Positions 1,693 through 44,008 of a stretch of 64,000 nucleotides of DNA are shown piece by piece. The notes under the pieces were generated by a model. That model was not told the DNA's origin, made no database searches, and saw nothing but the letters and a program-made list of their open reading frames with translations. The position numbers and the translations under genes are program-made. Within the stretch, counting starts at the first letter, position 1, and each line of letters opens with the position of its first letter. Source of the stretch: an uncultured Gammaproteobacteria bacterium (lineage in GTDB: Bacteria; Patescibacteriota; Microgenomatia; Levybacterales; UBA12049); assembly GCA_964416445.1 (NCBI GenBank), contig CAYQEE010000001.1, positions 67,676 to 131,675 of the forward strand, read 5' to 3'.

Positions 1693-2319
1693 CTACTTTT
1701 TTCTTCCGCTGAAGTTACGATTTTTTTCAATAAAATGAACCAATAAATAATTACCAAATTTATATCGTATAAGAACGACAAGTGATAAATCGAGAATACC
1801 AATATAAAGAGGGAAACCGTATTGGGCGAGCGTCCAAGATTTAATAGTTAGCAGAGTGATGACTGCACTAATCATTCCTAAAAAGTAAATTAAATAGCTT
1901 TCCGTTTCAGGCGCATAAAATGCTTTAACAATGGTTGGCAAGCCAGCGGAAGCATCAGCAAGAATACTAAATAAGATTGCGATATTTGGCGCTTTTGAGA
2001 GATACCATAAAAGTATCCCACAAAAAGAGAGACTTGCGCAAATTAGATCAAATAATCCTAATTTCCAATGAGATTTTTTGTTAATAAACGAAATAAAAAA
2101 TATGAGCAGCGGAATAATTCCTACAGTAAAGGTGAGAAGAGATGTTAAACCTACACCTTGTTTAATTTCTGCAACAAAGGCAACGAAAGGGGCAAAGGAC
2201 CAAAAAAGCCAAGTAACTTTATTTGGTTGTACTTTTCCTGTAATAGTATCTAATATATAACTTAAGCTACCAATAAAAGTTAATATTACTCCAATAATGA
2301 CAAAATACTGATTAATCAT
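1693..2319 (-). CDS. Integral membrane protein of unknown function (about 6 predicted TM helices)
   Basis: 208-aa ORF with six hydrophobic stretches. No recognisable family motif. Confidence 0.45.
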   Translation of the reverse strand: MINQYFVIIGVILTFIGSLSYILDTITGKVQPNKVTWLFWSFAPFVAFVAEIKQGVGLTSLLTFTVGIIPLLIFFISFINKKSHWKLGLFDLICASLSFCGILLWYLSKAPNIAILFSILADASAGLPTIVKAFYAPETESYLIYFLGMISAVITLLTIKSWTLAQYGFPLYIGILDLSLVVLIRYKFGNYLLVHFIEKNRNFSGRKK

Positions 2320-2384
2320 AGAACACTCAGCTCAGTATAATCTACTCATCTTCGCTGTACAAGTAAGGGAGTAATTTATGCTAA

Positions 2385-3368
2385 TTATAAAAGCGGCAAT
2401 ATTTCTTTTCCGTAGTTTGAAATAAAGTCTAGTTGATTAGGACCTGCTGAATGGACAATAATATGCGTAAAGCCGAGATTGGTATATTGTTTTATATACT
2501 GTATATGGTCTTGCGGATTACGGGAAATGCACATGCTTTGTTGAATAGTATCCATTCCTACTGCAGCACCGTTCATTTCAGACATTTTTGGTGTATAAAT
2601 CTTTTGATCGAATAAAGCTGGGATAAAGGTGCCAGCCCAATATTTTTTCATTTCATGTGTCACTGCTTTTATATCTTCAGAAAAAGCAACATTAATTTCG
2701 ATAAGTTTCGGCATCTTGGTAGCATTTTTACCAGCTTCTTCTGCACCTTTAGTAAAGTTTCTTATTATTTGTTTATATACTTCAGGTTTTTGTCCTCCAA
2801 CCGTTATGAGTCCGTCACCATATTCCCCCGCAAAGAAAGCACTTTCAGGAACTAATGACGATATATAAATTGGAATAGAATTTTTAGGCAAAGTAAATAA
2901 CTTTGCTTTTTTGGTTTCATAATATTCTCCTGTAAAAGTGACTTCTTTTCCTGTCAAAAGTTGTCGTATTAGGGTAATTGATTCTTGTAACATAGCTCTT
3001 CTTGTGTTATACCCAGGCCAAATTCCCGTTGCTGCATATTCATTTAATGCTTCACCAGTTCCTGTACATAAATAGAATCTGCCGTTAGCCATATAGGAAA
3101 TTGTAGCTGAAGCTTGAGCAATTATTGAAGGGTGATAACGAATGATGGGGCAGGTAAGCCCTGTTCCTACCATAATGTGCTTAGTTTTTACTGCCGCTGC
3201 CCCCAACCAGCTCCATGTATATGCACAACTTCCTTGCTCTGACCATGGGTGAAAATGATCACTGACATCGATACTGTCAAATCCTACTTTATCTGCAAGT
3301 ATCGCTTGTTCAAGCAAATCATCAGGTTGATATTGTTCTATTCCTGCTTTCCATCCAATGTGTGCCAT
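2385..3368 (-). CDS. fgd: F420-dependent glucose-6-phosphate dehydrogenase family oxidoreductase (LLM/luciferase-like fold)
   Basis: 327 aa. Colinear with mycobacterial Fgd1: GFDSIDVSDHFHPW, LTCPIIRYHPSIIAQA, TGTGEALNE blocks. Adjacent to the cofCDE genes. Confidence 0.75.
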   Translation of the reverse strand: MAHIGWKAGIEQYQPDDLLEQAILADKVGFDSIDVSDHFHPWSEQGSCAYTWSWLGAAAVKTKHIMVGTGLTCPIIRYHPSIIAQASATISYMANGRFYLCTGTGEALNEYAATGIWPGYNTRRAMLQESITLIRQLLTGKEVTFTGEYYETKKAKLFTLPKNSIPIYISSLVPESAFFAGEYGDGLITVGGQKPEVYKQIIRNFTKGAEEAGKNATKMPKLIEINVAFSEDIKAVTHEMKKYWAGTFIPALFDQKIYTPKMSEMNGAAVGMDTIQQSMCISRNPQDHIQYIKQYTNLGFTHIIVHSAGPNQLDFISNYGKEILPLL

Positions 3369-3456
3369 TGCTTAACTATGCAGATTATAGATCAGGGAAA
3401 TGTTAATTTTTCTTAAGAATTTTGATAGAACTAAATTCTGATTAAAAATCCAGAGT

Positions 3457-4326
3457 TTACAATTTTGCTAATTGTGGAATGATTTTTTCGCCAAATATGT
3501 GAAGAGGAGTAATTGCTTCCACATTTCTGATTCCAAAAATAGCATGATCAATACCTAATTCTCGAAGATGTTGTGCTTGCCCAATGATTTCTGCAGGATT
3601 TACGGTTGGTGAGGCAAATACGAGAACGGTCTTTTCTATCTCTCGATAATTTCGTCCAATTTCTTTGCAATGTTGTTGAAGTACCTGTAATTTATGGATA
3701 AGTCCTGGTTCATCATTTGCAAAAAGATTACATGCATTAGCATATTGTGCTACAAGTCGTAATGTTTTCTTCTCACCACCACCACCAATAAGGATTGGAA
3801 TAGTTGGTTTTGCGAGCGGAATTGGATGATTGATCGGTTCGCTAAGATTAAAATGTTTTCCTGAAATTGGTGCTGTATTATCTTGAAACATTTGTTTTGC
3901 AATGATGAGAGTTTCTTCTAATTCCTCAAACCGTTCTTTCAATGAAGGAAAGGGAAAACCAAGTCCTTTCGATTCTTCTTCATTCCAAGCTGCACCAATA
4001 CCGAGTATTGCTCTTCCTTTGCTTAAGACGTCAAGCGTAGTGACTGCTTTCACCAGCAAAGCAGGTTGTCGATAAATAACACCAGTAACCATAGTTCCTA
4101 AGGTTACTTTTTTTGTCTTACCAGCTAAGAAACCGAGGGTAGTATATGCTTCGAGCATCGGTTCTTCTTTCATTCCAACATGAGGTATTTGAAAAAAATG
4201 ATCCATTACCCAGAGACTATTAAACCCGACAGAATCTGCAGTAGTTGCAATTGTTGCAAGCGTATCACTTATTGACTGAGGCTCTTTTGGCCAGGTAAAT
4301 CTGCTAATTTGTAATCCCACTTTCAT
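3457..4326 (-). CDS. LLM-class F420-dependent oxidoreductase
   Basis: 289 aa. Luciferase-like monooxygenase-fold motifs: VGFNSLWVMDHF, YRQPALLVKAVTTLDVLSKGRAILGIGAAW. Located in the F420 island. Confidence 0.7.
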   Translation of the reverse strand: MKVGLQISRFTWPKEPQSISDTLATIATTADSVGFNSLWVMDHFFQIPHVGMKEEPMLEAYTTLGFLAGKTKKVTLGTMVTGVIYRQPALLVKAVTTLDVLSKGRAILGIGAAWNEEESKGLGFPFPSLKERFEELEETLIIAKQMFQDNTAPISGKHFNLSEPINHPIPLAKPTIPILIGGGGEKKTLRLVAQYANACNLFANDEPGLIHKLQVLQQHCKEIGRNYREIEKTVLVFASPTVNPAEIIGQAQHLRELGIDHAIFGIRNVEAITPLHIFGEKIIPQLAKL

Positions 4327-4530
4327 AGATAGTTTTCTTTTTCATTATATAAACCATATGCGATGAATGCAATCGCCCTGTGGATCGGTATTTTTAGGAA
4401 CGCAAATGAGGATTTTCTGGGCTTGTAGTGGCTAAAACGAGCGAAATAGGTGATATAGTTGTATTCATGTCCCACAGATCAATAACGTCTTATAGTTGAA
4501 ATTGGGTAATAAAATCGTTAAGATACAGCT

Positions 4531-6888
4531 ATGCCGACACCTGAACAAGTACAGCAAGCACAAGCGTATTTTTCAACATTACGTAGTTTGAGAACTGCAT
4601 TTCAGTCTCCTCAAGAATATCATCAATTTGTACGTGCACAGCGTTTGACAAACGAACATCAATCAAATCTGTCAATCATGAATTCATTTCGTCGTGGCCG
4701 ATTCGTACCTTCTGAACCTGCTCAGCAATCAGTAACATTTCCCCCAGATCAAGCGGTAAAAAAAAGTGAAGTGTCACTTGCTACATTACATGAGCAAATA
4801 AATAGGGAAAAAATGCAGCAAGCCCAACCAGGAGAATTTACTTGGTCGATGATGGAATGGGAAAGTTATCAAACAGCGATGCAAGAGACAAATGTCCACA
4901 AACGTGAAAAAGCCGTAAAGAAAACCGCGAAAATTGCTGCAGATAATCTCTTTGATCATGTTGACAGAATTGATTTCGCCGTAAGTTTATGGCGATCCTT
5001 TGAACTTGAGCAAGCGGACACGCAAGGTACACAATCATTTACTCAACGTGTAACTCGAGAACTTGCGATAAAAGCAAAAGAACGATGGAGAAATCTTACC
5101 CATGAGCAAATTGCTGAACTTATCAAAATCTATACCTACTCACCACTTGCTCATAAAACCGCACAAACGGTTCTAGCAAGCTATTTCTTGGGTCCTGAAA
5201 ATGAAGTTGAAAAGCAAAAACATGTAACGCAAGACTGGGAGAGAAGTTTGCGGGTTTGGCAAAATACTGCTGACATTTTATATACTTTAGCGCACACCGC
5301 ACTTGATCTCGTTGACGATATGCCGGCATTGAGAAAAGTACTTCGCATGCAAGAGTTTTTGGATAACGATGTAATTCCGATGGGTTCCCGTTTCATGGTT
5401 CACTCGACCATGGGATTAAATTTTTGCACGGAAGGGACTCCCGTACAAAATAAGATACTAAAAACAAGACATATTGCAGAACGCGTTTTTTCTGATTTAG
5501 AAACAATTGCTGGTATTTCTACGAATGAGTATATCCCTCAAGCTATGAAAGTACTAAGTTCTTCTGAGTATCATACACGTCAAGCAGGAATGATTATTAA
5601 TCACGTTGAGAAACGTATTGGGTATGATGAAAGAATAAAACGACGAGAAATGATTACCGCATTATCTGCAGATACGGTTCATGAAACCGGACAATCAAAA
5701 AACTGGTTAGAACAACTCATACACGATCCTACTGATCCATTAGAGAGACGGTATAAACGCGAAATAGGTCAGCAAGTGGTTGCAACAAGCTTAGGGAGAA
5801 AATTGGTACGAGAAAACTACGCCGCAAATAGTAGATCACATCTTGCATGGTATACTCTTCCGATTGAAAACGGATCAACGATGGTAAGTCTTATTATTCC
5901 GAGGTCATTGCTTTCTCAACTCAAAGAAGTTACAAAACAAGCTGTTGCCATTTATATGGAAACAGAACAAGCCCAACAATTTGTCCATGAAGAAAACGAT
6001 ATAGCACCATATCAAATATTTACCCAGACCTTTCAAATACAAAATGAAAAAGTAACGGTATTAGTACGAAAGCTCACGGAGCGGGAAAAAAGACAACATG
6101 AGCTCATGCAACTCCAAGAAATAGCATTTCCACTTATTGAAACTGTTGATGGGAAACCGGTCGCTGAAGCGAATCAAGCATTGGCAAGGGAAATTTATGG
6201 TACCCGACACATCTTCCCCAATGCCAGAGGATATCGAGTCAATTTTATGCAAGATACGCCACTTGGTAAAATGGGCATCGAAAATATTGATTTTATTGAT
6301 GATCCAGAAGGTACTGGAGAAATTGTTGCAATTTTTCCCGTTGGATCAGTGCCATTACGAATAAAAATAGCAAAAAATTTTACGCTTGATTTACAAGGAA
6401 AAACCTTTCCCAATCAGATGTTAAAAGAGTCGGTCCATTTCCTCTTATTAAAATTACTTCAACCAATTATTTGTTCCGATCCAGAAATAGGCGAAATACC
6501 AGAACAAACAGAGGTAACCAGAGTGATAACTGATCGTGTGGGATATCTCCGATATCTTCCTCCGACATGGAGCTATTCTGCGCAAGCAGTGAGCAATTAT
6601 AGGAGAGAACGACATGATGATCTTGAAGTGATGAGCGCGGTCAGGCAAGAAACAGCAAGAGAAAAAGCAAATCAGTATTTGCAAGTAACCGAACAAATTA
6701 TTGAACAACCAAATCCTCAAGCCAAGGCAGCAGTGTTTGAAAGAGCATGGATGAATCACGTTAAATGGGAGCGAAGGAGCCGAGGACAATCTACCTATGT
6801 AAAAGAAATAACTTCTGGGGAAATATTACCACCTTTGGACGTAACAAACATAGTATCTCAAGAAATCTTGTATCTTCAGTTTGTCTAG
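4531..6888 (+). CDS. Large hypothetical soluble protein (785 aa), no recognisable domain
   Basis: Uninterrupted 2.36-kb ORF on the opposite strand to the flanking F420 genes. No TM segments. Q/E/R-rich. Local GC is about 45% by hand count, against 23-30% in the glycan locus. No nucleotide-binding or catalytic motif recognised. Confidence 0.6.
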   Translation: MPTPEQVQQAQAYFSTLRSLRTAFQSPQEYHQFVRAQRLTNEHQSNLSIMNSFRRGRFVPSEPAQQSVTFPPDQAVKKSEVSLATLHEQINREKMQQAQPGEFTWSMMEWESYQTAMQETNVHKREKAVKKTAKIAADNLFDHVDRIDFAVSLWRSFELEQADTQGTQSFTQRVTRELAIKAKERWRNLTHEQIAELIKIYTYSPLAHKTAQTVLASYFLGPENEVEKQKHVTQDWERSLRVWQNTADILYTLAHTALDLVDDMPALRKVLRMQEFLDNDVIPMGSRFMVHSTMGLNFCTEGTPVQNKILKTRHIAERVFSDLETIAGISTNEYIPQAMKVLSSSEYHTRQAGMIINHVEKRIGYDERIKRREMITALSADTVHETGQSKNWLEQLIHDPTDPLERRYKREIGQQVVATSLGRKLVRENYAANSRSHLAWYTLPIENGSTMVSLIIPRSLLSQLKEVTKQAVAIYMETEQAQQFVHEENDIAPYQIFTQTFQIQNEKVTVLVRKLTEREKRQHELMQLQEIAFPLIETVDGKPVAEANQALAREIYGTRHIFPNARGYRVNFMQDTPLGKMGIENIDFIDDPEGTGEIVAIFPVGSVPLRIKIAKNFTLDLQGKTFPNQMLKESVHFLLLKLLQPIICSDPEIGEIPEQTEVTRVITDRVGYLRYLPPTWSYSAQAVSNYRRERHDDLEVMSAVRQETAREKANQYLQVTEQIIEQPNPQAKAAVFERAWMNHVKWERRSRGQSTYVKEITSGEILPPLDVTNIVSQEILYLQFV

Positions 6889-6890
6889 GT

Positions 6891-7511
6891 CTACATTTTC
6901 TCTTCTTTTCCAGAGAAAAAGTTTGGAGCAATGTTAGCAAGTATATCTATATCCACAGGAGTATCAATATCAAATGCAGTAGTCATAGCGGTATAAACTT
7001 GATAGGTTAGTGAGCGCATTGTTGCATAGTGTTTATAGATAGTAAAACTATTATTGCCAAAAAGAAAAGGTACTAATAACGGTGTGTGTGTCAGGAGAAT
7101 ATTCGTACCCGTGCCTTCCTTAGAGGGAGCTAGCACGAGTGAACAAGATTGTGAGAGTTGAATAATATTTTGAATATCTTCTTTTTGTACCAGAGGGAGA
7201 TCGGCGGAAATTATTAAAAGCGGATTAGACTTAGTTTCCTGTACTGCTGCATTATGAAGCGCTTTATTCTGGGTAAAGCTAGTATCTAAGTAATGATGGA
7301 TGCCAAGTTGCTTTTTAAGTCGTATGATAGAAGGATCTGCAGTTACTACTGATATCTGAGATATCTCTTGACACATACTGAGTACCGTAACCACATGCGT
7401 AAACATTTGCAATATAAGCTTTTTCCTATTTGCTTCAGGCAAATAGGCACGCAAGCGACTTTTTCCTTGTGAGAGCGTTTTCACGGGAATTAATGCATGA
7501 CAGTTATTCAT
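6891..7511 (-). CDS. cofC: 2-phospho-L-lactate guanylyltransferase (CofC/FbiD family)
   Basis: 206 aa. N-terminal ALIPVKTLSQGKSRL matches the CofC signature (IPVK...KSRL). MobA-like nucleotidyltransferase size. Immediately upstream of cofD. Confidence 0.75.
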   Translation of the reverse strand: MNNCHALIPVKTLSQGKSRLRAYLPEANRKKLILQMFTHVVTVLSMCQEISQISVVTADPSIIRLKKQLGIHHYLDTSFTQNKALHNAAVQETKSNPLLIISADLPLVQKEDIQNIIQLSQSCSLVLAPSKEGTGTNILLTHTPLLVPFLFGNNSFTIYKHYATMRSLTYQVYTAMTTAFDIDTPVDIDILANIAPNFFSGKEEKM

Positions 7512-7521
7512 GGGGTTTATA

Positions 7522-8454
7522 CTATAGAGAAACTCCAGCTGCTGTTAATGCCATAGCTGCTAACTTTTTTTTCGTGTGAATATCATGCATGATGGTATCC
7601 AAGGTAAAGACCTCCATACCGAGTTTTTCGATAGCCGATTGCAAATAGGCGTCTTGCAAATCAATTATCATACCATTTAAAAAATCTTTATAGTATTGAG
7701 CGACACCGAATGCAGATACCTCAAGATGTTTAAATTTCATGAGTTTGTCAGCAGGACCTTTAATTGGTTTTCCGCTGATGATAGGACTAATAGCAATTTT
7801 TTTACTTTTCGTTTGTAGTAAAGCTTGTTTGATTCCTGGAATAGCGAGAATACTACCGATGCTCACGAGTGGATTACTCGGTGCAATAATGATTGCTTCA
7901 GCAGTTGCAATTGCCTCGAGTATTTCAGGAGCTGCTTTTGCTTGTGCTGAGTGAGGAAAAATGATATCAAGAACAGGGATTTCAGTTCTATATTTAACAA
8001 AATATTCTTCAAAATGTATTATGCCTTGAGGAGTTTTAATATAGGTTTGTGCTATATCGTTACTCATGGGTACGAGTTGAATTTGAAGACCAAATTTTTT
8101 TACTATTTCTCGAGTTGCTTCACTCAGTGTTTTCCCTTGTTTCAAAAGATGTGTTCGATAAATATGTGTGGCTAAATCTTTATCTCCTAATAGGAACCAT
8201 GAGTCGTATCCCAGAAAAGTTAATTGGTTCATTGTGGCGTAGGTATCTTGTTTAATACCCCACCCTTGTTGGGGGTTAACCACTTTCGCAAGGGTGTAGA
8301 CAATAATATCTAAATCAGGCGAGACATGTAAACCGTAGAAATCACGGTCATCACCAGTATTGCCAATGATAAATATTTGTTCTTGTGGTTTAATGCAAAT
8401 TAATCCCTCAAGAAACTTTGCTGCTCCAACCCCTCCAGCTAATACGACAATCAT
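7522..8454 (-). CDS. cofD: 2-phospho-L-lactate transferase (LPPG:FO transferase, CofD)
   Basis: 310 aa. MIVVLAGGVGAAKFLEGL, NTGDDRDFYGLHVSPDLDIIVY and WFLLGDKD blocks characteristic of the CofD/YvcK-like fold. Confidence 0.8.
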   Translation of the reverse strand: MIVVLAGGVGAAKFLEGLICIKPQEQIFIIGNTGDDRDFYGLHVSPDLDIIVYTLAKVVNPQQGWGIKQDTYATMNQLTFLGYDSWFLLGDKDLATHIYRTHLLKQGKTLSEATREIVKKFGLQIQLVPMSNDIAQTYIKTPQGIIHFEEYFVKYRTEIPVLDIIFPHSAQAKAAPEILEAIATAEAIIIAPSNPLVSIGSILAIPGIKQALLQTKSKKIAISPIISGKPIKGPADKLMKFKHLEVSAFGVAQYYKDFLNGMIIDLQDAYLQSAIEKLGMEVFTLDTIMHDIHTKKKLAAMALTAAGVSL

Positions 8455-8472
8455 ATAATTTTTTCTCTTACT

Positions 8473-9228
8473 TTATCGAAACATATCTGATAATGGATCA
8501 CGAAGTAATGAATCAGCATTCTGTGAACTTGCATCATAATGAAATCCTCGGAGAATAGCTACTGGAATATTATCTATTTTACCCATGACTAATTCGGCGG
8601 CTGAAGCTATTTCATCAGCAATGGCGATAACACTTGCATGAAGTTCATAACCTGAGACATCTTGTTTACCTCTAAAATCTAAGAGCGGAGAAATGCCAGA
8701 AGATCCAATTGCAAAGTTTACTTGGCCTTCACGCCATGGACGACCCCATGTATCAGAAATGATCGTAGCAAGCTCAACGTCCCAGCGTTTTTTTAGATCT
8801 TTTCGAAGTGCGTCAGCTGATTTATTCGGACTGGACGGAAGGATTGATACGGTATTGGTTTTCATTATATTTGATGCATCGACACCGGCATTTGCGCAAA
8901 TAAAACCATGATGTGTTTCAGTGATTAAAACGGTACTATTCATGCGAACAATTCGTTTACTCTGTTGCAAAACAACTTCAATAAATCGAGGATCTTTTTG
9001 AGCAGTTTTTGCAATATGTATTGCAAATGCAGATGGAGTAATACTATTCAAATGAATAATTTGCCCTTCTACTTTTGATACGATTTTTTGGGTAACGATT
9101 ACAATATCCTTATTTTTTAGTGAAATACCATTCCCTGTTATCGCAATGCTTATCAATTCAGATAGCGAATCACCTGGAGATATTTCAGGAATATAATGGA
9201 TAGGGAAAATTTCAATCGAATGTTTCAT
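8473..9228 (-). CDS. cofE: Coenzyme F420-0:L-glutamate ligase (CofE, short stand-alone type)
   Basis: 251 aa, the usual CofE size. VIVTQKIVSKVEGQ and ANAGVDASN motifs. No fused nitroreductase domain, unlike actinobacterial FbiB. Confidence 0.75.
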   Translation of the reverse strand: MKHSIEIFPIHYIPEISPGDSLSELISIAITGNGISLKNKDIVIVTQKIVSKVEGQIIHLNSITPSAFAIHIAKTAQKDPRFIEVVLQQSKRIVRMNSTVLITETHHGFICANAGVDASNIMKTNTVSILPSSPNKSADALRKDLKKRWDVELATIISDTWGRPWREGQVNFAIGSSGISPLLDFRGKQDVSGYELHASVIAIADEIASAAELVMGKIDNIPVAILRGFHYDASSQNADSLLRDPLSDMFR

Positions 9229-9242
9229 TTTTGTTTGATAAA

Positions 9243-10229
9243 TTATGCAATTTGCTTTAAGGTAGGAATAACATGCTGACCAATAAATGTAATGAGGTTT
9301 TCTTGATTTATGCTTGTTGTTTGGATGACGACGATATTTGCGTGCAACTGGGTAATTAACGGAGAATAGAGAGAAATGAAATCTTCCTTTGTTGCAATTC
9401 TTGGATATCGAGACAAAATTTGTTCTTTAGGAAGTGAATCTGCTTCTTTTTGCAGTTCTTCAGGATCAATAGCTTTGTCTCTATTTGGTGCTCGAAGTCC
9501 TCTCCAAGGTTGCAGAGCATTCCAAGCTTCATGCTCATCTTGAGCAAAAACACTCCAACGACTCGTTACTATCGTAAATGTATTATTGTTTTTCGATTTT
9601 GCTGAAACTATTGCTGGTTCGATAATATTTCTAAGAGTTTCATCAGGTTCTTTTACACTAGCAATAACACCATTGGCTATTTCTCCAGCAAGTGTTCCCG
9701 ATTTTATACCACCTGCAGCAAGAAATACGGATATAGGATGGAGCGGGGGACTATAAAGTTTTGCGTGGTTTGTTCGATAATAGGTTCCAGAAAAATCTAA
9801 TTTTTCGCCTGCTAATAATCGTGAAATTATTGCTATTGCCTCACGAACTCTTTCTGAACGTTCTTGATATTTGGGAAACGGATATCCGAGAGGAACTTCA
9901 TTAATTGATTCACCTGTTCCTACTCCAAGAGAGAATCTTCCGTGGGACAGTCGATCGATTGTTGCAGCTGCTTGGGCAACAGTTGCAGGATGATAGCGAA
10001 AAAGGGGAGTGATAACTCCTGTTAATAATTGTATTCTCTTTGTTTTTGCAGCAATTGCACCGAGTGTCGCTAATGCATATCCTGCTGAACCAAAATCAGC
10101 TACCCATGGATGAAAATGTTCTGAGATACAGATGCCATCAAATCCAACTGCTTCCGCAAGCTGTGCATGCTTTACCAAAACTTCGGGTTGAAATTGTTCG
10201 TGACCTAAAAAATAATAAATTTGGGACAT
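9243..10229 (-). CDS. F420-dependent glucose-6-phosphate dehydrogenase family oxidoreductase, second paralog
   Basis: 328 aa. GFDGICISEHFHPW, ITPLFRYHPATVAQAAATIDRL, GVGTGESINE. Paralogous to 2385..3368. Confidence 0.75.
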   Translation of the reverse strand: MSQIYYFLGHEQFQPEVLVKHAQLAEAVGFDGICISEHFHPWVADFGSAGYALATLGAIAAKTKRIQLLTGVITPLFRYHPATVAQAAATIDRLSHGRFSLGVGTGESINEVPLGYPFPKYQERSERVREAIAIISRLLAGEKLDFSGTYYRTNHAKLYSPPLHPISVFLAAGGIKSGTLAGEIANGVIASVKEPDETLRNIIEPAIVSAKSKNNNTFTIVTSRWSVFAQDEHEAWNALQPWRGLRAPNRDKAIDPEELQKEADSLPKEQILSRYPRIATKEDFISLYSPLITQLHANIVVIQTTSINQENLITFIGQHVIPTLKQIA

Positions 10230-10308
10230 ACCTTACTAGCAACCTTATGATTATAACACTCTGTGTAAGTAAATAGGATTATTTATGTAAGAACGATGTT
10301 ATAAGATC

Positions 10309-12135
10309 TTAGTGCTGTTTATATAATGGTAAAGAGAATGTAAATACAGATCCTTTACCAACTTCACTTACTACTTGGACATTTCCCTTATGGCGGGAAA
10401 TAATTTCCTTGACTATATACAACCCAATACCAAGTCCCGGATAGGTATCATGACCATTTCCCGTCACTCGATAAAATCGTTCAAATATCCTTGGTAAATG
10501 TTCATGGGGAATTCCTTTGCCGGAATCACGAATACTCACAAGAGCATATTCGTTATTTGTATGGAGTGTGACACAAATTTCAGAATGTGAAGGAGAATAC
10601 TTAATAGCATTTGTGAGTAAGTTAATAAGTACTTGGCTTATCCGTTCTTTATCTGCTGAAACTAAGGACGTAATCGTACCGCTTTTTGTGATCCTATGTT
10701 TTCTTGTGCTAGTTTGCATTAATTCAATTGTTTCGTTAACTAGTTCATTAAGATTAAAATTTTCCTCTCGAAACTCAAGTCTCCCTGTCTGAATTCTCGA
10801 TAAATCTAGTAAATCTATCACTAAGCGAGTAAGTCGATCAATTTGGTTATTCATTTTATGTAAGTAAACCATTGCATTCTTATTATGCGAACGAGAAAAT
10901 TCTTTTTGAAGCAATTCCGTATATACTTTAATACTTGTTAAGGGAGTTTTTAGTTCATGACTTGCCATAGACATAAAGTTGTCTTTGCGCTGCTCTTGTT
11001 CTTTGAGTTTTGTAATATCATGGAGCGCGTTAATAACAAGAATAGGAGATTTTTTTTCATCATATATTGCTGTTGACTTTACGATAACATATCGTACAAT
11101 ACCCGTTTTTTTTTCGCGATAACGTAATGTCACTTGTGGATTTATTTCACCTCGTATAGCTCGTCTTCCTGGTAACTGAGTGTTGGGGAACGTATTTCCT
11201 TTCTCGTCAGTAATTTCATAGCGTTTTAAATAATCAAATAGTGGTGCATCAATCATTTCCTGTACCGTTTGGTATCCAGTAGCATGTGCTGCAGCTAAAT
11301 TTGCGTAGATAATTTTTCCCTGTGTATCTTGTACTGTAATACCATCAGCGATATTTTTTAAGATAATATCCAATTGATTTTTCGAAGCTTGCAACGCTCG
11401 TTCAATATGTTTTCTTTTCGTGATATCAAGTGATACGCCAACAACTCCAATAAACTCACCTTGAGAATTTTTAAGAGGATTATAGTGAGTTTCAAAGATA
11501 ACGTTTCCTAAATTTCCTTCCTCCCAAAATGCTTCACCATGAAGAGCTCGATCTATTTTTTTTATGATTTCCGGATTTTCTCGATTCACTTCTTGATAAG
11601 TTTTTCCGATAATCTCATTTGGCGCGAAATGAATTGCTTCTAAACTTTTTCCTTCTGCAAATGTGAAAACACCTTGAGTATCTATTGCCCAGAAAATGAG
11701 CGGAATACTATCCAAAACTTTTTGAAAATAGACTTCATGAGCAAGTGCTTTCTCTTGTTGCTGTCTGACTGAGGTAATGTCATGTAAATTTACTAGAAAT
11801 CCATTGATTGCAGGGTTATTAAGCTGGTTTACAAGTTTTACTTCAAATAATTTCCATGTTCCTAAGTTATCACTGAAGCGAATAGTAGCTGTTTCTAATA
11901 ATGTCCTAGTTGCTGAAAGAAGAGATGTCTTAAATAGCTTTTGGTCACTGGGAGCAATATAGGAATTTATATTATTACCTATGAATTGATTTGGAGTGTA
12001 TCCTAAAACATCAGAGATTCTCTTATTTGCAAATAAAATTTCCCCTTTTTTGTTAATAAATAAAAAAATATCATTACTTTTTTCATAAATCTTTTGATAA
12101 TCCTGCAGTGAACGCAATGCGTTTCTTTTGGTCAT
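10309..12135 (-). CDS. Sensor histidine kinase with three PAS-like domains (HisKA + HATPase_c). Cytoplasmic, no TM
   Basis: 608 aa. H-box MSMASHELKTPLTSIK. N/G1/G2 boxes NLLTNAIKYSP, IRDSGKGIP, GLGIGLYIVKEIISRHKG. Upstream repeated PAS-like segments. No response-regulator gene adjacent. Confidence 0.85.
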   Translation of the reverse strand: MTKRNALRSLQDYQKIYEKSNDIFLFINKKGEILFANKRISDVLGYTPNQFIGNNINSYIAPSDQKLFKTSLLSATRTLLETATIRFSDNLGTWKLFEVKLVNQLNNPAINGFLVNLHDITSVRQQQEKALAHEVYFQKVLDSIPLIFWAIDTQGVFTFAEGKSLEAIHFAPNEIIGKTYQEVNRENPEIIKKIDRALHGEAFWEEGNLGNVIFETHYNPLKNSQGEFIGVVGVSLDITKRKHIERALQASKNQLDIILKNIADGITVQDTQGKIIYANLAAAHATGYQTVQEMIDAPLFDYLKRYEITDEKGNTFPNTQLPGRRAIRGEINPQVTLRYREKKTGIVRYVIVKSTAIYDEKKSPILVINALHDITKLKEQEQRKDNFMSMASHELKTPLTSIKVYTELLQKEFSRSHNKNAMVYLHKMNNQIDRLTRLVIDLLDLSRIQTGRLEFREENFNLNELVNETIELMQTSTRKHRITKSGTITSLVSADKERISQVLINLLTNAIKYSPSHSEICVTLHTNNEYALVSIRDSGKGIPHEHLPRIFERFYRVTGNGHDTYPGLGIGLYIVKEIISRHKGNVQVVSEVGKGSVFTFSLPLYKQH

Positions 12136-12286
12136 AGTTTACTTACTTTCATCGATATCCATATTTTACCGAATTAATTGTAAGAATAGAGTAAAGGTTG
12201 CTTCACTTAATGAATATTTCCTTCATGAAAATATATTGCTTACTACTTAAAATAAAATTAAAAACTACATAGTATTCCCAATACTT

Positions 12287-12670
12287 ATGCTTATAAGTAT
12301 TCCATACCTTCCCATCTTCAAACAAGTGACTAGTAGTTGCTCTATAAAACATGTTTTAATTAATAAGGACAAATATGCTAGAACAACAAATTTTGCTATT
12401 CAAAAAAATATGAATGGGACAAAAACAATCATACAACAAGTACCCTTTACAGCAAATAATCTAATCAGTTATACCATTGATTTTAATGTCCAAGGGAAAT
12501 CAATCAATGCAAGGGTCTGGAATACGAATAATGGTTCTAAACCTTCAAGCGGGATGATATTAATAACGGATAGCTCACTTACTTTGGCAGGAAATGGTAA
12601 AGTCTGTATATTGACAACGAGCTCTACGAATGCAATTATGCAGTATTTTCAAGCTCAAGCGATTTGCTAA
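12287..12670 (+). CDS. Hypothetical small protein (127 aa), N/T/S-rich; may be non-coding
   Basis: Only sizeable ORF in the 580-bp divergent intergenic region between the histidine kinase and the first glycosyltransferase. No motifs. Composition atypical. Confidence 0.2.
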   Translation: MLISIPYLPIFKQVTSSCSIKHVLINKDKYARTTNFAIQKNMNGTKTIIQQVPFTANNLISYTIDFNVQGKSINARVWNTNNGSKPSSGMILITDSSLTLAGNGKVCILTTSSTNAIMQYFQAQAIC

Positions 12671-12716
12671 TACACTATGCTAGTTTGATAGCGGGAAATA
12701 CATTATAATGATATAA

Positions 12717-13478
12717 ATGTCTCAGCAAACACTTTCAGTTGTTTTAGCAACATTTAATGAAGAAAAAAATCTTCCTGAATGTCTGCAATCAGTAAAAGGA
12801 CTTGCGAACGAAATAGTAGTCGTTGATGGGTCCTCAAGTGACCATACCGTTTCCATTGCCAAAAATTTTGGTGCTCGAGTACAAATAACTAATAATCCTC
12901 CGGTCTTTCATATTAATAAGCAAAAAGCGATTAATATGGCAACGCAAGATTGGATTTTACAATTAGATGCCGATGAGAGGGTAACACCTGCACTGAAACA
13001 AGAAATACACAAGGTTTTAACAAGTAATTCAGACAAAAACGGGTATTGGATACCACGAAAAAATTGGTTTCTCGGACGATATTTAATGAAAGGAGGCGTT
13101 TATCCCGATTATACGTTACGGTTATATAGAAGAGGAAAAGGTTCATTACCGCAAAAGGATGTTCATGAACAAGCAATTGTAGAAGGGGAAGTGGGATATT
13201 TACAACAACCATTAATACATCTTGCAGATCCGGAGTTTAGTCGATATTTAAAACGATTTAAACGATATACAAGTCTCATAGCGACACAGTTGGAAGAAAA
13301 GAAAACAGGAAAAAATCCAGGTACTTTGATAAAATATATGGTAATATTACCAATTTGGTGGTTTTTGAAAGCATACATACGTCATAAAGGTTTTTTCGAT
13401 GGGTGGCAAGGGTTTGTGTTTGCCTTTTTTTCAGCACTTCGATTTCCTGTGTCGTATATAAAGTATTTACAAAAGTAA
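12717..13478 (+). CDS. Glycosyltransferase family 2
   Basis: VVLATFNEEKNLPECLQS ... VVVDGSSSDHT ... LQLDADE (DxD-type) GT-A motifs. TATAAT box 15 nt upstream. Confidence 0.75.
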   Translation: MSQQTLSVVLATFNEEKNLPECLQSVKGLANEIVVVDGSSSDHTVSIAKNFGARVQITNNPPVFHINKQKAINMATQDWILQLDADERVTPALKQEIHKVLTSNSDKNGYWIPRKNWFLGRYLMKGGVYPDYTLRLYRRGKGSLPQKDVHEQAIVEGEVGYLQQPLIHLADPEFSRYLKRFKRYTSLIATQLEEKKTGKNPGTLIKYMVILPIWWFLKAYIRHKGFFDGWQGFVFAFFSALRFPVSYIKYLQK

Positions 13479-24059: not shown

Positions 24060-25170
24060 TTATTTTTTTTCTAAACGATCAAAAAGATCAAGTGCATTTT
24101 TAAAGGCTTGATCCATATTAAAGTATTTATAATTTGCAAGTCTCCCTACAAAATAAATACCATTTTTTTCAAGTTTTTCTGATTCTTTTCGATACTTTTC
24201 ATAGAGTGCTCTATTTCGAGGATTCGGTACGGGGTAGTATGGTTCACCTTCTGAGGTGCTATATTCTCGTATTATTGTTGTTTGTGGATGTTTTTGACCA
24301 GTCGCGTGTTTAGGTTCATTGATTCTTGTAAAGGAACAATCGTTAGGATAGTTAATCTGCGCTCGGGATTGAAAGTATTCCATATGGAGCGTTTGATATT
24401 CAAAGCGTAACGATCGATATTGTAATTTATCTTTAAACTTATATTCAAAAAATCGATCTATGGGTCCTGTGAAAAAAAAGCTTTTCATACTGGGTGATTT
24501 TCTCTTTAATTTTAAAAAAATCAGTATCTAACCGTATTTCTATATTTGGGTGATTAAGCATATTTTGAAATATTTTTGTATAACCTTCTTTAGGCATAGC
24601 TTGATAGGTATCGGGGAAATAACGATCGTCAAAGGATGTATAGACGGGAATTCGGTTGAGTACTGACGCATCAAGGTCTTGAGGACTAAGATTCCACTGC
24701 TTAATTGTATAATTTTTAAACATTAATTCGTATAACTTTTCTCCTACTCTAGCCTTTGCAGATTCTTCGCTATTTTTAGGGAAAGCTATTTTTTTGGTAT
24801 TTTCCATAAGCCAATCCTTCATTTCTTTTTCGGAGGTAAGATTTATCTTAAAGAGAATATTAACCGTGTTAATATTCACCGGTACGGGTACTTGTATACC
24901 GTGAACACTACTTAATACACGGTGTTCATAAGGATGCCATTGCGTGAATTTCGAAATATATTTCCAAATGGTTACATCATTTGTATGGAAAAAATGAGGA
25001 CCGTATTTGGGAACTAATATACCGGCTGAATCAAGATAATCATAACAATTACCTCCTATGTGGTTTCTTTTTTCAAGGACTAAAATTTTTTTCTTACAAA
25101 TGTTTGCATAGCGTTCTGCTAATGTTGCTCCTGAGATACCTGCACCGACAATAATAATATCAAATTGCAT
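24060..25170 (-). pseudogene. glf: UDP-galactopyranose mutase gene interrupted by a frameshift in a homopolymer (A8 at 24472-24479, T8 on the coding strand)
   Basis: ORFs 24445..25170 (FAD-binding N-terminus IIIVGAGISGATLAERYA ... YGPHFFHTN ... DTYQAMPKEGYTKIFQNML) and 24060..24488 (TGPIDRFFEY ... YRSLRFE ... YPND ... GRLANYKYFNMDQ) are colinear with Glf. Removing one T from the T8 run joins them seamlessly (..YEKLFF-TGPIDRFFEY..). Confidence 0.75.
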
Positions 25171-29178: not shown

Positions 29179-30299
29179 AAAAAACATATCGATATCCAAC
29201 AATTATGATTTTGACCTCACTGCAATATGCAAACCACTTGCGTGAATATTTTGTGGAAAATGCAGAGAAAACAATCGCATTTTATGTTTTACCAAGAAGA
29301 GGAACAATTAAAAATTTTGTAGAAGTATATGAAAAAGGAATAAAAAAAGAAACAAAAAAACTTTACTCTCCAAAAAATCTTTTTTTATGGCATATCATGT
29401 TGTATGTACATTATATTACTATTTTGTTTCGTTATACTAAGAAAAAAGAAAAAGTATATTTTATCAATTACTTATTTACCTTATTTTTTTTACAATCACT
29501 TATTAGGTTATTTCGTGACATCAATTTTGTCGCCTGGGTAGGAGATTATTGGCCAATGCATGATCTTTCCATTCGATTTTATATGTTCTTTTTACATTAT
29601 TATCATGACCATGTTAAATATGCATTTTACCAAACAGATAGGATAAATGAAAAAATGAATAAAGGTAAATTACTGGCTACGGAAAATAAAAAAAATATTA
29701 TTCCTGCTATTGATCCCCCTCAAATAGATTATACAAAAAAGATAAAAGGTAGAATTGTCTTGTGCTTTATTGGTGTATTAGTGCCTTGGCAAGGTGTTGA
29801 AGTACTATTACAAGTAGTCGCCAAAAATCCAAAAGTACACTTAAAGCTTATTGGCACAGGCGAGGAAAGCCTAGTAAAAGATTACCTAAATCTTATTACA
29901 AGATATAATATTAAAGATAGGGTTTATTTTCCAAACAAGTTTATCTATGGAAATGAACTGAAAAAGGAAATTGCAGATTCCCACATCGGTATGGCTCTCT
30001 ATACAGTTGATCCCATGAGTGTAACTTATTACGGTGATCCGGCGAAAATAAAACAATACCTTGAATATGGATTGCCTATTATTATGACTGATGCAGCTGA
30101 GGTTGCTCAGTATATAAAAAAATTTGAAGCGGGAATTATTGTAACAAAAGATGTATCATCAGTAAATAATGCTATTGAAAAGATACGGAAAAATTATACT
30201 AAATATTTACATAATTTGGATCATCTGAATCACGCGTTTGATTTTAGGAAATATTATGTTGATAAATTTACTTTTATGGAAAACAAAAATACTTTATGA
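29175..30299 (+). CDS. Putative GT-B glycosyltransferase (C-terminal Glycos_transf_1-like half recognisable)
   Basis: VLVPWQGVEVLL ... LKLIGTGEE ... EYGLPIIMTD resembles a GT-B C-domain. N-terminal half unrecognised. Confidence 0.4.
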   Translation: MKKTYRYPTIMILTSLQYANHLREYFVENAEKTIAFYVLPRRGTIKNFVEVYEKGIKKETKKLYSPKNLFLWHIMLYVHYITILFRYTKKKEKVYFINYLFTLFFLQSLIRLFRDINFVAWVGDYWPMHDLSIRFYMFFLHYYHDHVKYAFYQTDRINEKMNKGKLLATENKKNIIPAIDPPQIDYTKKIKGRIVLCFIGVLVPWQGVEVLLQVVAKNPKVHLKLIGTGEESLVKDYLNLITRYNIKDRVYFPNKFIYGNELKKEIADSHIGMALYTVDPMSVTYYGDPAKIKQYLEYGLPIIMTDAAEVAQYIKKFEAGIIVTKDVSSVNNAIEKIRKNYTKYLHNLDHLNHAFDFRKYYVDKFTFMENKNTL

Positions 30300-31465
30300 A
30301 AATTACTCAAGCAGTTATTTTAGCAGGAGGTAAAGGAACAAGATTACTGCCTTATACTCTAACTGCTCCAAAACCAATGTTACCTATTCATGGTAAACCA
30401 TTCTTAGAATATCTCATAGAGGATCTGAGGGAAAATGGTATTACTGAGATTGTTTTACTTGTTGGATATCTTCATGAGCAAATTGAACGTTATTTTGGAG
30501 ATGGGAGATTATTTAATGTCAAAATATCTTATTCTTATTTGTCGGCTAATGCAAATACAGGAGAAAGAATGATTAACGCATTACCATTGTTAAAAGAAAA
30601 AATTATTTTGCTATATGGGGATAATACTTGGCCGCTTAATTTACCGGAAATACTTGATGTATATATCAAGAAAAAAAAGAAGGTGCTTATGAGCGTGTAT
30701 AATAATAGAGATGCAATAAGAAAAGGAAATGTTCTCGTTGAAGATAATATTGTTTCAATATATGACGTAAATCATCTTCATAATTTCCGGGGAATCAATA
30801 TTGGGTATTTTATTTTTGATACATCAGTTTTGGAAGGATTGCCCAAAGAAAATATTTCTCTTGATGATATTTTGCTTAGTTTAATAAAGAAGAATGATGT
30901 TTCTGCATATATTACCGATTACCCATATTATAGTGTAACTTCGCCAGAAAGATTACCTAAGGTATATGAATATCTACGTGAGAAGAAAGTAGTATTTCTT
31001 GATCGCGATGGCGTTATTAATAAAAAAGCTGCAAAAGCTGAATATATAAATCGTTGGGAAGATTTTCACTTTCTTCCTCAGGTAAAAGAAGCGCTGAAAC
31101 TTTTGCAAAAAAAAGGGTATGAAATATATATTATTTCAAATCAATCGGGTATTGCGCGTGGTATGATGACCAAATTACAACTTTCTGAAATTCATACGAA
31201 TTTACAAAAAGAATTAAAAAATGACGGAGTTATAATAAAAGACATCTATTTTTGTCCACATGGGTGGGATGAGGGATGTTGGTGTAGAAAACCAAATCCA
31301 GGAATGCTTTTCCAAGCTGCGATAGAACATCAAATTAATTTACAAAAAAGCATATTTATTGGTGATGATCCGAGAGATCAGCAAGCAGGTATGGCGGCTG
31401 GAGTTACCACCTATTTAGTTACACAAAAGGAAAATCTTTTTGATATAGTACGTAAGTATTTATGA
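30296..31465 (+). CDS. Bifunctional D-glycero-alpha-D-manno-heptose 1-phosphate guanylyltransferase (HddC-like) plus D,D-heptose 1,7-bisphosphate phosphatase (GmhB, HAD)
   Basis: N-terminal AVILAGGKGTRLLPYTLTAPKPMLPI sugar-1-P nucleotidyltransferase motif. C-terminal HAD motifs VVFLDRDGVINK and CWCRKPNPGML (GmhB signature), GDDPRD. Confidence 0.7.
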   Translation: MKITQAVILAGGKGTRLLPYTLTAPKPMLPIHGKPFLEYLIEDLRENGITEIVLLVGYLHEQIERYFGDGRLFNVKISYSYLSANANTGERMINALPLLKEKIILLYGDNTWPLNLPEILDVYIKKKKKVLMSVYNNRDAIRKGNVLVEDNIVSIYDVNHLHNFRGINIGYFIFDTSVLEGLPKENISLDDILLSLIKKNDVSAYITDYPYYSVTSPERLPKVYEYLREKKVVFLDRDGVINKKAAKAEYINRWEDFHFLPQVKEALKLLQKKGYEIYIISNQSGIARGMMTKLQLSEIHTNLQKELKNDGVIIKDIYFCPHGWDEGCWCRKPNPGMLFQAAIEHQINLQKSIFIGDDPRDQQAGMAAGVTTYLVTQKENLFDIVRKYL

Positions 31466-32439
31466 TTATTTCACGAACGCCAATTAGAATTAGTTTTGTT
31501 GGGGGAGGAAGCGATATAGAAAGTTTTTATACCCATCAAATGGGCGCAGTTATTTCTACGGCAATCAATAAGTATATTTATATTGCCGTAAATGAACAAT
31601 TTGACGGACGTATAATTATCAATTACTCAAAAACAGAAATAGTAAAAGAAATTGCAGCAATAGAAAATAATTTAGTTCGTGAGGGTATGAGAACAACGAG
31701 AATAAAAGGAGGAATTCATATTACATCAATTGCTGATATTCCTGGTGAAGGAACTGGAATGGGCTCTTCTAGTGCGTATATAGTCGGTTTACTTAATGCA
31801 TTATATGCCTATCAAGGAAAACATGTTACTGCGGAAAAGCTTGCTCAAGAGGCATGCAAGATTGAAATAAGTATTTTAAAAAAACCAATTGGAAAGCAGG
31901 ACCAATACATCGCTGCTTACGGTGGTTTTAACTATATACAATTTAAAGAGGATGGAAATGTCTATGTAGATCATATTATTTGTTTACCAGCAACAATACA
32001 AAAATTACAAAAACGGTTGTTACTTTTTTATACTGGGATAACTCGCTCAGCGGATCCGATCCTTTTGCAACAAATTCGGCAAATGAACGATAAAAAGGAG
32101 TATATGAAAAAAATGGTCGGACTTGTTAAAGAACTTCGACATGATCTCAATAATAACAATCTATCCTCCTTTGGAGATATTCTCCATGAAAACTGGCTTC
32201 TTAAGAAAAAACTTGCTGATGGGATAACATCTCAAAAAATTGATGACTGGTATGCATTAGCTCGAGAACAAGGTGCAGAAGGAGGAAAACTATTAGGAGC
32301 AGGGGGAGGTGGCTTCCTCCTTGTGTATGCAAAGGTAAAAGATCATGCTAAAATAAAGTCTGCATTGAAAGATCTCAAACATGTTCCATTTTCTTTTGAA
32401 CAGCAAGGAAGTAAAATAATTTTCTTAGATAATAATTAA
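31462..32439 (+). CDS. hddA: D-glycero-alpha-D-manno-heptose 7-phosphate kinase (GHMP kinase, HddA-like)
   Basis: MIISRTPIRISFVGGGSDIESFY N-terminus and PGEGTGMGSSSA GHMP ATP-binding motif. Confidence 0.75.
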   Translation: MIISRTPIRISFVGGGSDIESFYTHQMGAVISTAINKYIYIAVNEQFDGRIIINYSKTEIVKEIAAIENNLVREGMRTTRIKGGIHITSIADIPGEGTGMGSSSAYIVGLLNALYAYQGKHVTAEKLAQEACKIEISILKKPIGKQDQYIAAYGGFNYIQFKEDGNVYVDHIICLPATIQKLQKRLLLFYTGITRSADPILLQQIRQMNDKKEYMKKMVGLVKELRHDLNNNNLSSFGDILHENWLLKKKLADGITSQKIDDWYALAREQGAEGGKLLGAGGGGFLLVYAKVKDHAKIKSALKDLKHVPFSFEQQGSKIIFLDNN

Positions 32440-32441
32440 TT

Positions 32442-43969: not shown

Positions 43970-44008
43970 GTATGCTACTATTATACACATAAAATATTCT
44001 TTGTGAAG

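Follow-up and report, generated by a model that had tools for sequence, protein, structure and literature searches.

Coenzyme F420 is usually discussed for methanogens, for actinobacteria and, more recently, for Chloroflexota and some Proteobacteria. Among the described systems, the one closest to the genes that we analyze here is the cofE-fbiE-cofD-cofC cluster of the Ktedonobacteria/Thermomicrobium type, which serves the phosphoenolpyruvate (PEP) route via dehydro-F420. Members of the candidate phyla radiation (CPR), on the other hand, are thought to be fermentative, host-dependent and poor in cofactor biosynthesis. Our subject is a 64-kb stretch of metagenome-derived DNA, called the window in what follows, which carries between positions 2385 and 10229 the genes cofC, cofD and cofE together with three genes for luciferase-like (LLM) oxidoreductases (LLM1, LLM2 and LLM3). 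An original prediction, made from the window alone, took this block for an island of horizontally acquired F420 genes. Our analysis makes it fairly probable that the block is instead a long-resident chromosomal module, for assembly of the F420 tail and for use of the cofactor, in a Levybacteria-related Microgenomates bacterium of the CPR, with a roughly even chance that the deazaflavin FO on which the module would act is imported.

Seven open reading frames (ORFs) fill positions 2385-10229, six enzyme genes on the minus strand and one ORF on the plus strand. In a profile search all six enzyme ORFs score above the curated NCBIfam cut-offs, and the six genes named in the original prediction are indeed where it had placed them. 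Read in the direction of the minus strand, LLM3 (9243-10229; TIGR03557 211.8 bits, cut-off 210.4; PF00296 166 bits) comes first, followed after 14 bp by a stand-alone cofE of 251 aa (8473-9228; TIGR01916 269.5 bits, cut-off 180.65; PF01996 240.7 bits), after a further 18 bp by cofD (7522-8454; TIGR01819 323.2 bits, cut-off 257.45; PF01933 157.6 bits) and after 10 bp by cofC (6891-7511; TIGR03552 144.1 bits, cut-off 105; PF01983 100.7 bits, cut-off 22). LLM2 (3457-4326; TIGR03560 290.5 bits, cut-off 231.4) and LLM1 (2385-3368; TIGR03557 273.8 bits, cut-off 210.4) complete the block. The tight spacing of cofE, cofD and cofC agrees with the contiguous block described earlier, but an ORF of 785 aa on the plus strand (hyp785, 4531-6888), which had gone unmentioned, interrupts the block between cofC and LLM2; it is convergent with cofC, with 2 bp between the two stops. 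The gene calls of three independent Logan assemblies contain identical proteins in the same order.

What would the three Cof proteins make? In an alignment of the window CofC to 7P97, 2I5E and 6BWG, the metal-binding residues Asp104 and Asp181/Asp183 (FDIDTP), together with Lys11 (IPVK) and Ser155, are conserved and match D116, D188, D190, K17 and S166 of the Mycobacterium tuberculosis (Mtb) protein. The position diagnostic of the substrate is Gly152, in the motif FGNNS, and Gly occupies it in 55 of 56 homologues from all the loci that we fetched for comparison. Mutagenesis has established that this position, Ser162 in Mycetohabitans and Gly163 in Mtb, decides the use of 3-phosphoglycerate, enzymes of the 3-phosphoglycerate type having a Ser or Thr where Mrhiz-CofC has S162; according to the same paper, CofC by itself does not reveal whether 2-phospholactate or PEP is used (PMC8764529). 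Because the diagnostic residue is Gly152, the window CofC is predicted to be of the 2-phospholactate/PEP type and the route to 3PG-F420 is, on this residue, excluded. The earlier statement that the CofC substrate could not be called was thus too cautious as regards 3-phosphoglycerate, and apt as regards the choice between 2-phospholactate and PEP. CofE aligns only with positions 10-243 of the 449-position FbiB model and has no nitroreductase domain; with its 251 aa it lacks the FbiB C-terminal domain, just as the original prediction had noted.

The three oxidoreductases are less alike than a common label would suggest. The best solved relative of LLM1 is Adf (1RHC), an F420-dependent secondary alcohol dehydrogenase (255.5 bits, E 5.6e-75), with Fgd1 at 216 bits; those of LLM3 are Fgd1 (5LXE, 179 bits) and the hydroxymycolate dehydrogenase fHMAD (9FP4, 171 bits); for LLM2 we found no close solved relative. 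LLM3 keeps His38, Trp42 and Glu107 as well as the Arg of the Fgd set, the Lys-His pair of Fgd being changed to Asp-Lys and Lys197 to Glu. We would call a protein an Fgd if it reached at least 420 bits on the equivalog TIGR03554 and carried the phosphate and catalytic set Lys198/Lys259-His260/Arg283, and both LLM1 (241.8 bits) and LLM3 (184 bits) fall short of that cut-off. By these comparisons LLM1 is classed as Adf-like, LLM3 as Fgd/fHMAD-like and LLM2 as a member of the Rv1855c family, and none is callable as Fgd. The description of two of the three as Fgd-family enzymes therefore fits only loosely. Outside the window, about 2.1-2.5 kb upstream of its position 1, lies a gene for a PNPOx-like split-barrel protein of 161 aa (L176, positions 9798-10283, minus strand; PF01243 53.8 bits). 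As a candidate F420-dependent FDOR-B we rejected it, its scores being below every F420-PPOX cut-off (TIGR03618 21 against 79 bits).

One could also imagine that the locus is not an F420 system at all, the LLM proteins having reverted to FMN and the CofC, CofD and CofE homologues working in another small-molecule pathway of the YvcK or folate type. LLM1 and LLM3 do score well on the FMN-type 'flavin_revert' model TIGR03885 (251.8 and 178.6 bits, with LLM2 at 28.4 bits), and LLM3 is borderline for TIGR03557. Yet these scores are far below the cut-off of 398.7 and all three proteins fall in F420-dependent rather than FMN-dependent families, as had been claimed; CofD reaches only 38.7 bits on the YvcK-type paralogue model TIGR01826 against 323.2 bits on its own, and CofE 63.3 bits on the folate-type model against 269.5 bits. 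Five F420-family genes in one conserved order would, moreover, be hard to explain otherwise, and we regard this alternative as highly improbable.

That conserved order is found well beyond the window. The arrangement LLM3-cofE-cofD-cofC-LLM2 recurs among the fetched loci (L036/L098/L100, L089/L090 and L091/L092/L096); a 3.6-kb contig that starts at cofE (L179) shows cofE-cofD-cofC-LLM2 only, and partial copies occur in L095, L097, L099 and L101. The carriers represent at least four other sequence-distinct lineages with a G+C content (GC) of 0.36-0.38, in which the GC of the module equals that of its flanks and the amino-acid identity of the module to that of the window is 55-72%. Identity of these low-GC copies to the window is 59-66% for LLM3, 47-61% for CofE (53-61% for full copies), 52-66% for CofD, 36-45% for CofC and 61-72% for LLM2. 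For the genes in matching positions, LLM3 is 61-66% identical to its counterpart in L036, L089 and L091, and LLM2 61-72% identical to the gene that follows cofC in L036, L089, L091 and L179; the closest CofD homologues of all (63-66%) are on low-GC contigs that bear the same module. The outer two genes are also found without the inner three: in eight metagenome loci (L104, L105, L106, L108, L114, L120, L144 and L145; GC 0.40-0.59) LLM3 and LLM2 homologues lie side by side without cof genes between them, 17 bp apart in L104. Because they are adjacent in this way in eight loci, LLM3 and LLM2 are a conserved functional pair in their own right.

LLM1 and hyp785, in turn, are lineage-specific additions to the module in the window copy. 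An LLM1-like gene (37-39% identical) follows cofC in about a third of the Ktedonobacteria clusters. The hyp785 gene is absent from L036, L089, L091, L098, L100 and L179, and its product has no match in Pfam, NCBIfam, PHROGs or PADLOC; the family is small, with 86 representatives, and its only named members are from Candidatus Microgenomates. Its AlphaFold model is confident (pLDDT 83, pTM 0.74) and gave no informative fold match.

The Ktedonobacteria cluster shares the order and the orientation of cofE, cofD and cofC with the window, and it supplies the closest named sequences (CofD 55-61% identical, CofE 50-56%, CofC 36-44%). Its CofC has the same diagnostic Gly, and in both systems FO synthase is unlinked. 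In contrast, the window and its low-GC relatives lack an FbiE-like gene and have the LLM3/LLM2 pair bracketing the cof genes, and their host GC is 33-38%, against 46-61% in Ktedonobacteria. In the approximately 28 Ktedonobacteria loci the order is cofE, a 215-aa gene, cofD and cofC. The 215-aa product has a nitroreductase fold (PF00881, 132 bits) and scores 152.6 bits on TIGR03553, the FbiB C-terminal model, below the cut-off of 249.55; it is a candidate dehydro-F420 reductase of the FbiE type. This FbiE-like gene lies between cofE and cofD in 28 of 28 informative Ktedonobacteria loci, and a tblastn search with its product found no counterpart in any of the low-GC module loci or in the window, where the best match has an E of 2.3. 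No copy of the module has FbiE or the FbiB C-terminal domain, which speaks against the PEP route or else for an unlinked or non-orthologous reductase.

LLM3 homologues adjoin stand-alone cofE genes in several high-GC loci without a nitroreductase match, and we considered LLM3 as a replacement for FbiE, that is, as a dehydro-F420 reductase. The two genes show no clean anticorrelation and many clusters have neither, and we keep this idea only as a speculation of low probability.

How long has the module been in this genome? In a tree of CofD the Ktedonobacteria are monophyletic in 100 of 100 replicates, and the window, L089 and L091 group together in 82 of 100, outside the Ktedonobacteria and as their sister. 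The four low-GC copies of CofE likewise come together in 69 of 100 replicates, again as sister to the Ktedonobacteria, and in a tree of 153 CofD sequences, 120 of them further database entries, the window clade with its six distinct members stands outside a Ktedonobacteria clade of 128. On these trees and identities we take the module to be an ancient and diverged sister of the Chloroflexota cluster rather than a recent import.

The original prediction had reached the opposite view from base composition, contrasting a hand-counted GC of 38-45% in the block with 23-30% in the adjacent glycan locus. The measured contrast is smaller: 38.0% for positions 2385-10229, 5.5 points above the 32.5% for the rest of the window, with single genes at 36.9-39.6% inside the block and at 28.0-37.3% elsewhere in the window. 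Separating the codon positions is instructive. The six F420 genes average 37.7% GC, with 0.50, 0.38 and 0.250 at the first, second and third positions (GC1, GC2 and GC3), and the other 48 genes of the window 32.6%, with 0.42, 0.32 and 0.235 +/- 0.026, such that the excess lies at positions 1 and 2 and GC3 is that of the host. Moreover, 12 non-glycan genes just outside the window, including those for glycyl-tRNA synthetase (GlyRS), RsmH, XseA, RecO, DUF4012 and GH18, average 36.8% GC with a GC3 of 0.263. The contrast thus arises from amino-acid composition, which acts through the first two codon positions, and from the unusual AT-richness of the glycan locus: the block looks like ordinary host DNA, and it is the 50-kb glycan locus that looks like the outlier. 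The composition argument for horizontal acquisition accordingly fails, since both total GC and GC3 match the housekeeping genes, and nothing else marks an insertion: the window holds no tRNA or tmRNA and no Rfam match, no scanned window ORF has a mobility domain (integrase or transposase), and no repeats bound the block beyond short ones at chance level.

A recently acquired and still compositionally distinct island from a higher-GC donor, in Chloroflexota or Actinobacteria, is therefore very unlikely and largely refuted. The higher total GC of the block and the place of the Ktedonobacteria, at 46-61% GC, as closest named relatives of CofD, CofE and CofC are what one would expect of such an island. 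Against it stand GC3, an identity to Ktedonobacteria of only 36-61%, the sister rather than nested position of the window clade, and the presence of the module, with ameliorated GC, in several other low-GC lineages. An island GC equal to that of the genome, with F420 genes also in relatives, was the picture originally associated with the absence of any transfer, and it is largely the picture that we find, with the qualification that the other carriers may not be close relatives of the host. What survives of the suggested horizontal origin is its older form. To our knowledge F420 is not a general trait of the CPR, and because of this and because the nearest outgroup is Ktedonobacteria (Chloroflexota), an ancient transfer into the host clade, or inheritance by it, is likely on phylogenetic rather than compositional grounds.

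With a contig of metagenomic origin one must also ask whether a Chloroflexota fragment was joined to a CPR contig in silico, by assembly or binning. Next to the block, 79 bp upstream of LLM3 and on the same strand, lies a gene for a histidine kinase of 608 aa (10309-12135, minus strand; three PAS domains, HisKA and HATPase_c in Pfam) whose best matches, in a search that was biased to long proteins (at least 946 aa), were long PAS kinases, for the most part those of Ktedonobacteria and other Chloroflexota and also with Bacteroidota names. These matches could be held to favor such a join. On the other side, the Logan assembly of SRR12266071 (L001/L175) spans the entire block, with the glycan genes at one end and GH18 at the other, those of SRR12266072 (L003, L176) and SRR12266074 (L002, L177) each cover one side, hyp785 puts a gene of a Microgenomates-specific family inside the block, and composition by codon position is uniform. 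We give this alternative hardly any credence. The kinase itself may be co-transcribed with LLM3; it is outside the conserved module, since L036 and L089 have no equivalent gene at its position and L091 has a different PAS kinase with a response regulator 2.6 kb from the module. A promoter and terminator scan of positions 2000-12800 gave counts equal to those of shuffled sequence and is uninformative on operon structure.

The lineage of the host has to be read from outside the block. The window itself has no marker genes and is almost entirely devoted to glycan biosynthesis, and no rRNA or ribosomal protein gene was found in it or in its reachable flanks. A Logan contig that extends the 3' end (L084/L086/L087) encodes glycosyltransferases, ManC, Bac_transf, DUF4012, RecO, GlyRS, XseAB, MraZ, RsmH and FtsI. 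Across the 3' end of the window and this extension, 12 genes (PMT_2, GT4, GT2, GT4, GT1, ManC, Bac_transf, DUF4012, RecO, GlyRS, MraZ and RsmH) are collinear with GCA_030645455.1 (JAUSNA010000016.1, GC 39%), an assembly named Candidatus Levybacteria, with identities of 70% for GlyRS, 72% for Bac_transf, 56% for ManC, 54% for GT1, 52% for RsmH and 47% for DUF4012. Named relatives of the GlyRS at 71-74% identity are from Candidatus Saccharimonadales, 'Patescibacteria group' and Candidatus Levybacteria. The same synteny is found in a soil contig from a metagenome-assembled genome (L093, ENA k141_415662; GC 35%), whose GlyRS is named 'Candidatus Sulfotelmatobacter sp.' in NCBI; because a contig of 35% GC is here collinear with a Levybacteria-like host, that label is evidently wrong. 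An exact-peptide scan of the GTDB species representatives with the window CofD found no relative, and exact-sequence look-ups of hyp215 and of a 1028-aa protein found no record. From synteny and protein similarity and, independently, from the Microgenomates names in the hyp785 family, we place the host in the Microgenomates/Levybacteria lineage of the CPR. The generic low-GC bacterium of the original prediction was right about GC and can be made more specific in this way, and the weak or absent Shine-Dalgarno sequences that it reported are borne out, since a motif of this kind (GGAG/GAGG/AGGA) is upstream of 4 of 54 genes against a background of 10%, that is, without enrichment. The other module carriers share no flanking genes with the host in a tblastn search of ORFs against loci, and look-ups of cluster members for the flanking proteins of L036, L089 and L091 gave no names. 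One of them (L036, CAZJVI010000031.1) is labelled 'uncultured Gammaproteobacteria' and encodes an LPVTG sortase-signal protein beside the F420 module; because of this sortase substrate we think the label probably wrong.

If the module assembles and uses F420, where does its FO come from? No window ORF of at least 120 aa has a Radical_SAM Pfam match, in agreement with the earlier remark that the window lacks an FO synthase. A scan of about 224 kb, comprising the window, the extensions and the low-GC module loci (12 related loci), for the CxxxCxxC motif in ORFs of 200 aa or more was likewise negative. As a positive control, the same scan did recover CofG/CofH pairs, which lie next to cofD in Binatia-like and deltaproteobacterial loci, as well as an FbiC-like ORF of 834 aa in an actinobacterial locus. 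CPR genomes, of about 1 Mb, lack most cofactor pathways, and they usually lack biosynthesis of riboflavin and of aromatic amino acids, which supply both precursors of FO. Since no copy of the module has a linked FO synthase and since the CPR are poor in cofactor biosynthesis, FO import is favored, and its import followed by processing through CofC, CofD and CofE would be the most economical model, in which we give the salvage step itself a roughly even chance. Such import would ask little of the cell, as FO diffuses freely through membranes and is trapped inside once a phospho-acid is attached (PMC8498797).

The competing possibility is that the pathway is complete and de novo, with cofG/cofH or fbiC elsewhere in the genome and the window showing just the part for tail assembly. 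For this cluster type an unlinked FO synthase is normal, none being found within 10 kb of the cluster in the approximately 28 Ktedonobacteria loci. The analysis covers about 85 kb of the organism, made up of the 64-kb window with about 4.5 kb of upstream and about 17 kb of downstream sequence. FO and F420 genes do, in addition, co-occur in most organisms (PMC8498797). The scan of about 224 kb for radical-SAM ORFs and the biosynthetic poverty of the CPR both speak against this alternative, which we consider a serious one and still rather unlikely.

We picture the module with FO import as follows. CofC would activate a three-carbon phospho-acid with GTP, either 2-phospholactate or PEP and not 3-phosphoglycerate. 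CofD would join the activated acid to FO, giving F420-0 or dehydro-F420-0, and the stand-alone CofE would add gamma-glutamates. FO would enter across the membrane and be trapped as soon as CofC and CofD have attached the charged group. The most plausible task of LLM3 and LLM1 would be the reduction of F420 at the expense of a sugar, a sugar-phosphate or an alcohol, and LLM2, of the Rv1855c family, would most plausibly spend the resulting F420H2. More generally, and only tentatively, we propose that a Microgenomates-like subclade of the CPR may run a neighbor-dependent F420 economy, making no deazaflavin of its own and trapping and glutamylating FO from F420 producers. These might be actinobacteria, Chloroflexota or methanogens, and may be the very hosts of these cells. 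The subclade would have dropped the reductase of a Ktedonobacteria-type ancestor, whether by using 2-phospholactate, by using dehydro-F420 as such, or because one of the two always-linked LLM enzymes took over the reduction.

Several considerations weigh against our account of a long-resident module fed by imported FO. Non-linkage of FO synthase is weak evidence of its absence, because in Ktedonobacteria it is unlinked as well, and genes for an FO synthase, a stand-alone fbiE, fno or FDOR proteins could lie elsewhere in the genome. The substrates of the LLM proteins and the direction of electron flow are our inference, and LLM3 clears TIGR03557 marginally, by only 1.4 bits. The trees are neighbor-joining trees on short alignments with 100 replicates, and in the CofD tree L036 does not group with the window. 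Finally, the host assignment draws on synteny, one aminoacyl-tRNA synthetase and names given by submitters.

The glycan locus, which takes up most of the window, offers some observations of its own. At 24060-25170 on the minus strand the gene for UDP-galactopyranose mutase (Glf) falls into two overlapping ORFs, one (24445-25170) with the NAD-binding domain and GLF positions 2-87 and the other (24060-24488) with GLF positions 83-203; the split reflects a frameshift, a pseudogene or an assembly error. Genes on the plus strand at 30296-34117, for a nucleotidyltransferase-HAD phosphatase fusion, a GHMP kinase, an epimerase and a SIS isomerase, look like a pathway for nucleotide-activated heptose. 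Five large proteins of 421-1201 aa, all encoded on the plus strand (35482-39087, 39774-41789, 43952-46447, 51693-52958 and 58293-61379), have no Pfam match; in L093 the gene at the position of the last, of 1021 aa, carries a Wzy_C domain.

An F420 module in CPR bacteria appears to be essentially undescribed, and the lineage is unexpected. A 2021 review of F420 does not mention Patescibacteria or the CPR, and a full-text literature search found no paper that analyzes F420 genes of Patescibacteria, the candidate phyla radiation, Microgenomates or Levybacteria. Paper searches likewise gave nothing on read set SRR12266071 and nothing on FO scavenging by organisms whose genomes have F420 genes but not cofG/cofH. 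The sole precedent that we found is a one-line KEGG-module remark on one OD1 bin (PMC5383146). Through a conserved module of this kind, with its three dedicated oxidoreductases, the known redox chemistry of the CPR would gain a low-potential hydride carrier. If FO is indeed salvaged, the F420 pathway would here have its first cofactor-salvage form, and CPR cells would be tied metabolically to their partners. The compact tail cluster without fbiE and the widely conserved LLM3-LLM2 pair are also of interest for F420 biocatalysis.

Other known F420 systems share some features with the module. In the archaeal 2-phospho-L-lactate route CofE likewise stands alone, and a dehydro-F420 reductase is neither needed nor present, as in the window; the window CofC aligns comparably well to that of Methanosarcina mazei (2I5E, 50.7 bits) and to bacterial homologues. 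Among the fetched loci, archaeal genes are nevertheless more distant from the window (CofD 42-52%, CofC 30-32%), some archaeal loci (L031, L037, L051 and L062) carry a nitroreductase-fold gene, and archaeal F420 producers encode CofG/CofH, unlike the window. The source of 2-phospholactate is unknown in any organism (PMC8498797). The symbiont Mycetohabitans (Paraburkholderia) rhizoxinica, which makes 3PG-F420, offers another parallel, with a compact cofC-cofD-cofE cluster, a stand-alone CofE and no reductase step, and its CofC (7P97, 52.4 bits) is the best PDB match of the window protein. The residues that go with 3-phosphoglycerate differ, however, Ser162 and His145 being replaced by Gly152 and Thr134 in the window (PMC8764529), and Mycetohabitans is without known F420-dependent enzymes (PMC8498797), whereas the window module has three.

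The actinobacterial proteins FbiD, FbiA, FbiB and FbiC share the chemistry of tail assembly with the module, but the window has neither the FbiB fusion nor FbiC, and its CofC reaches only 30.7 bits against Mtb FbiD. On the side of cofactor use, Fgd1, fHMAD and Adf belong to the same TIM-barrel LLM family as LLM1 and LLM3, in which the catalytic His, Trp and Glu (SDHFHPW/SEHFHPW; GTGE) are kept; in contrast to Fgd, the two score below the equivalog cut-off, LLM3 is without the Lys-His pair, and LLM1 is nearer to Adf. Taken one by one, then, all six enzymes belong to described families, and of the described systems the Chloroflexota cofE-fbiE-cofD-cofC cluster comes nearest; taken together, as a form that salvages FO and does without the reductase, they may constitute a new variant of the F420 pathway.

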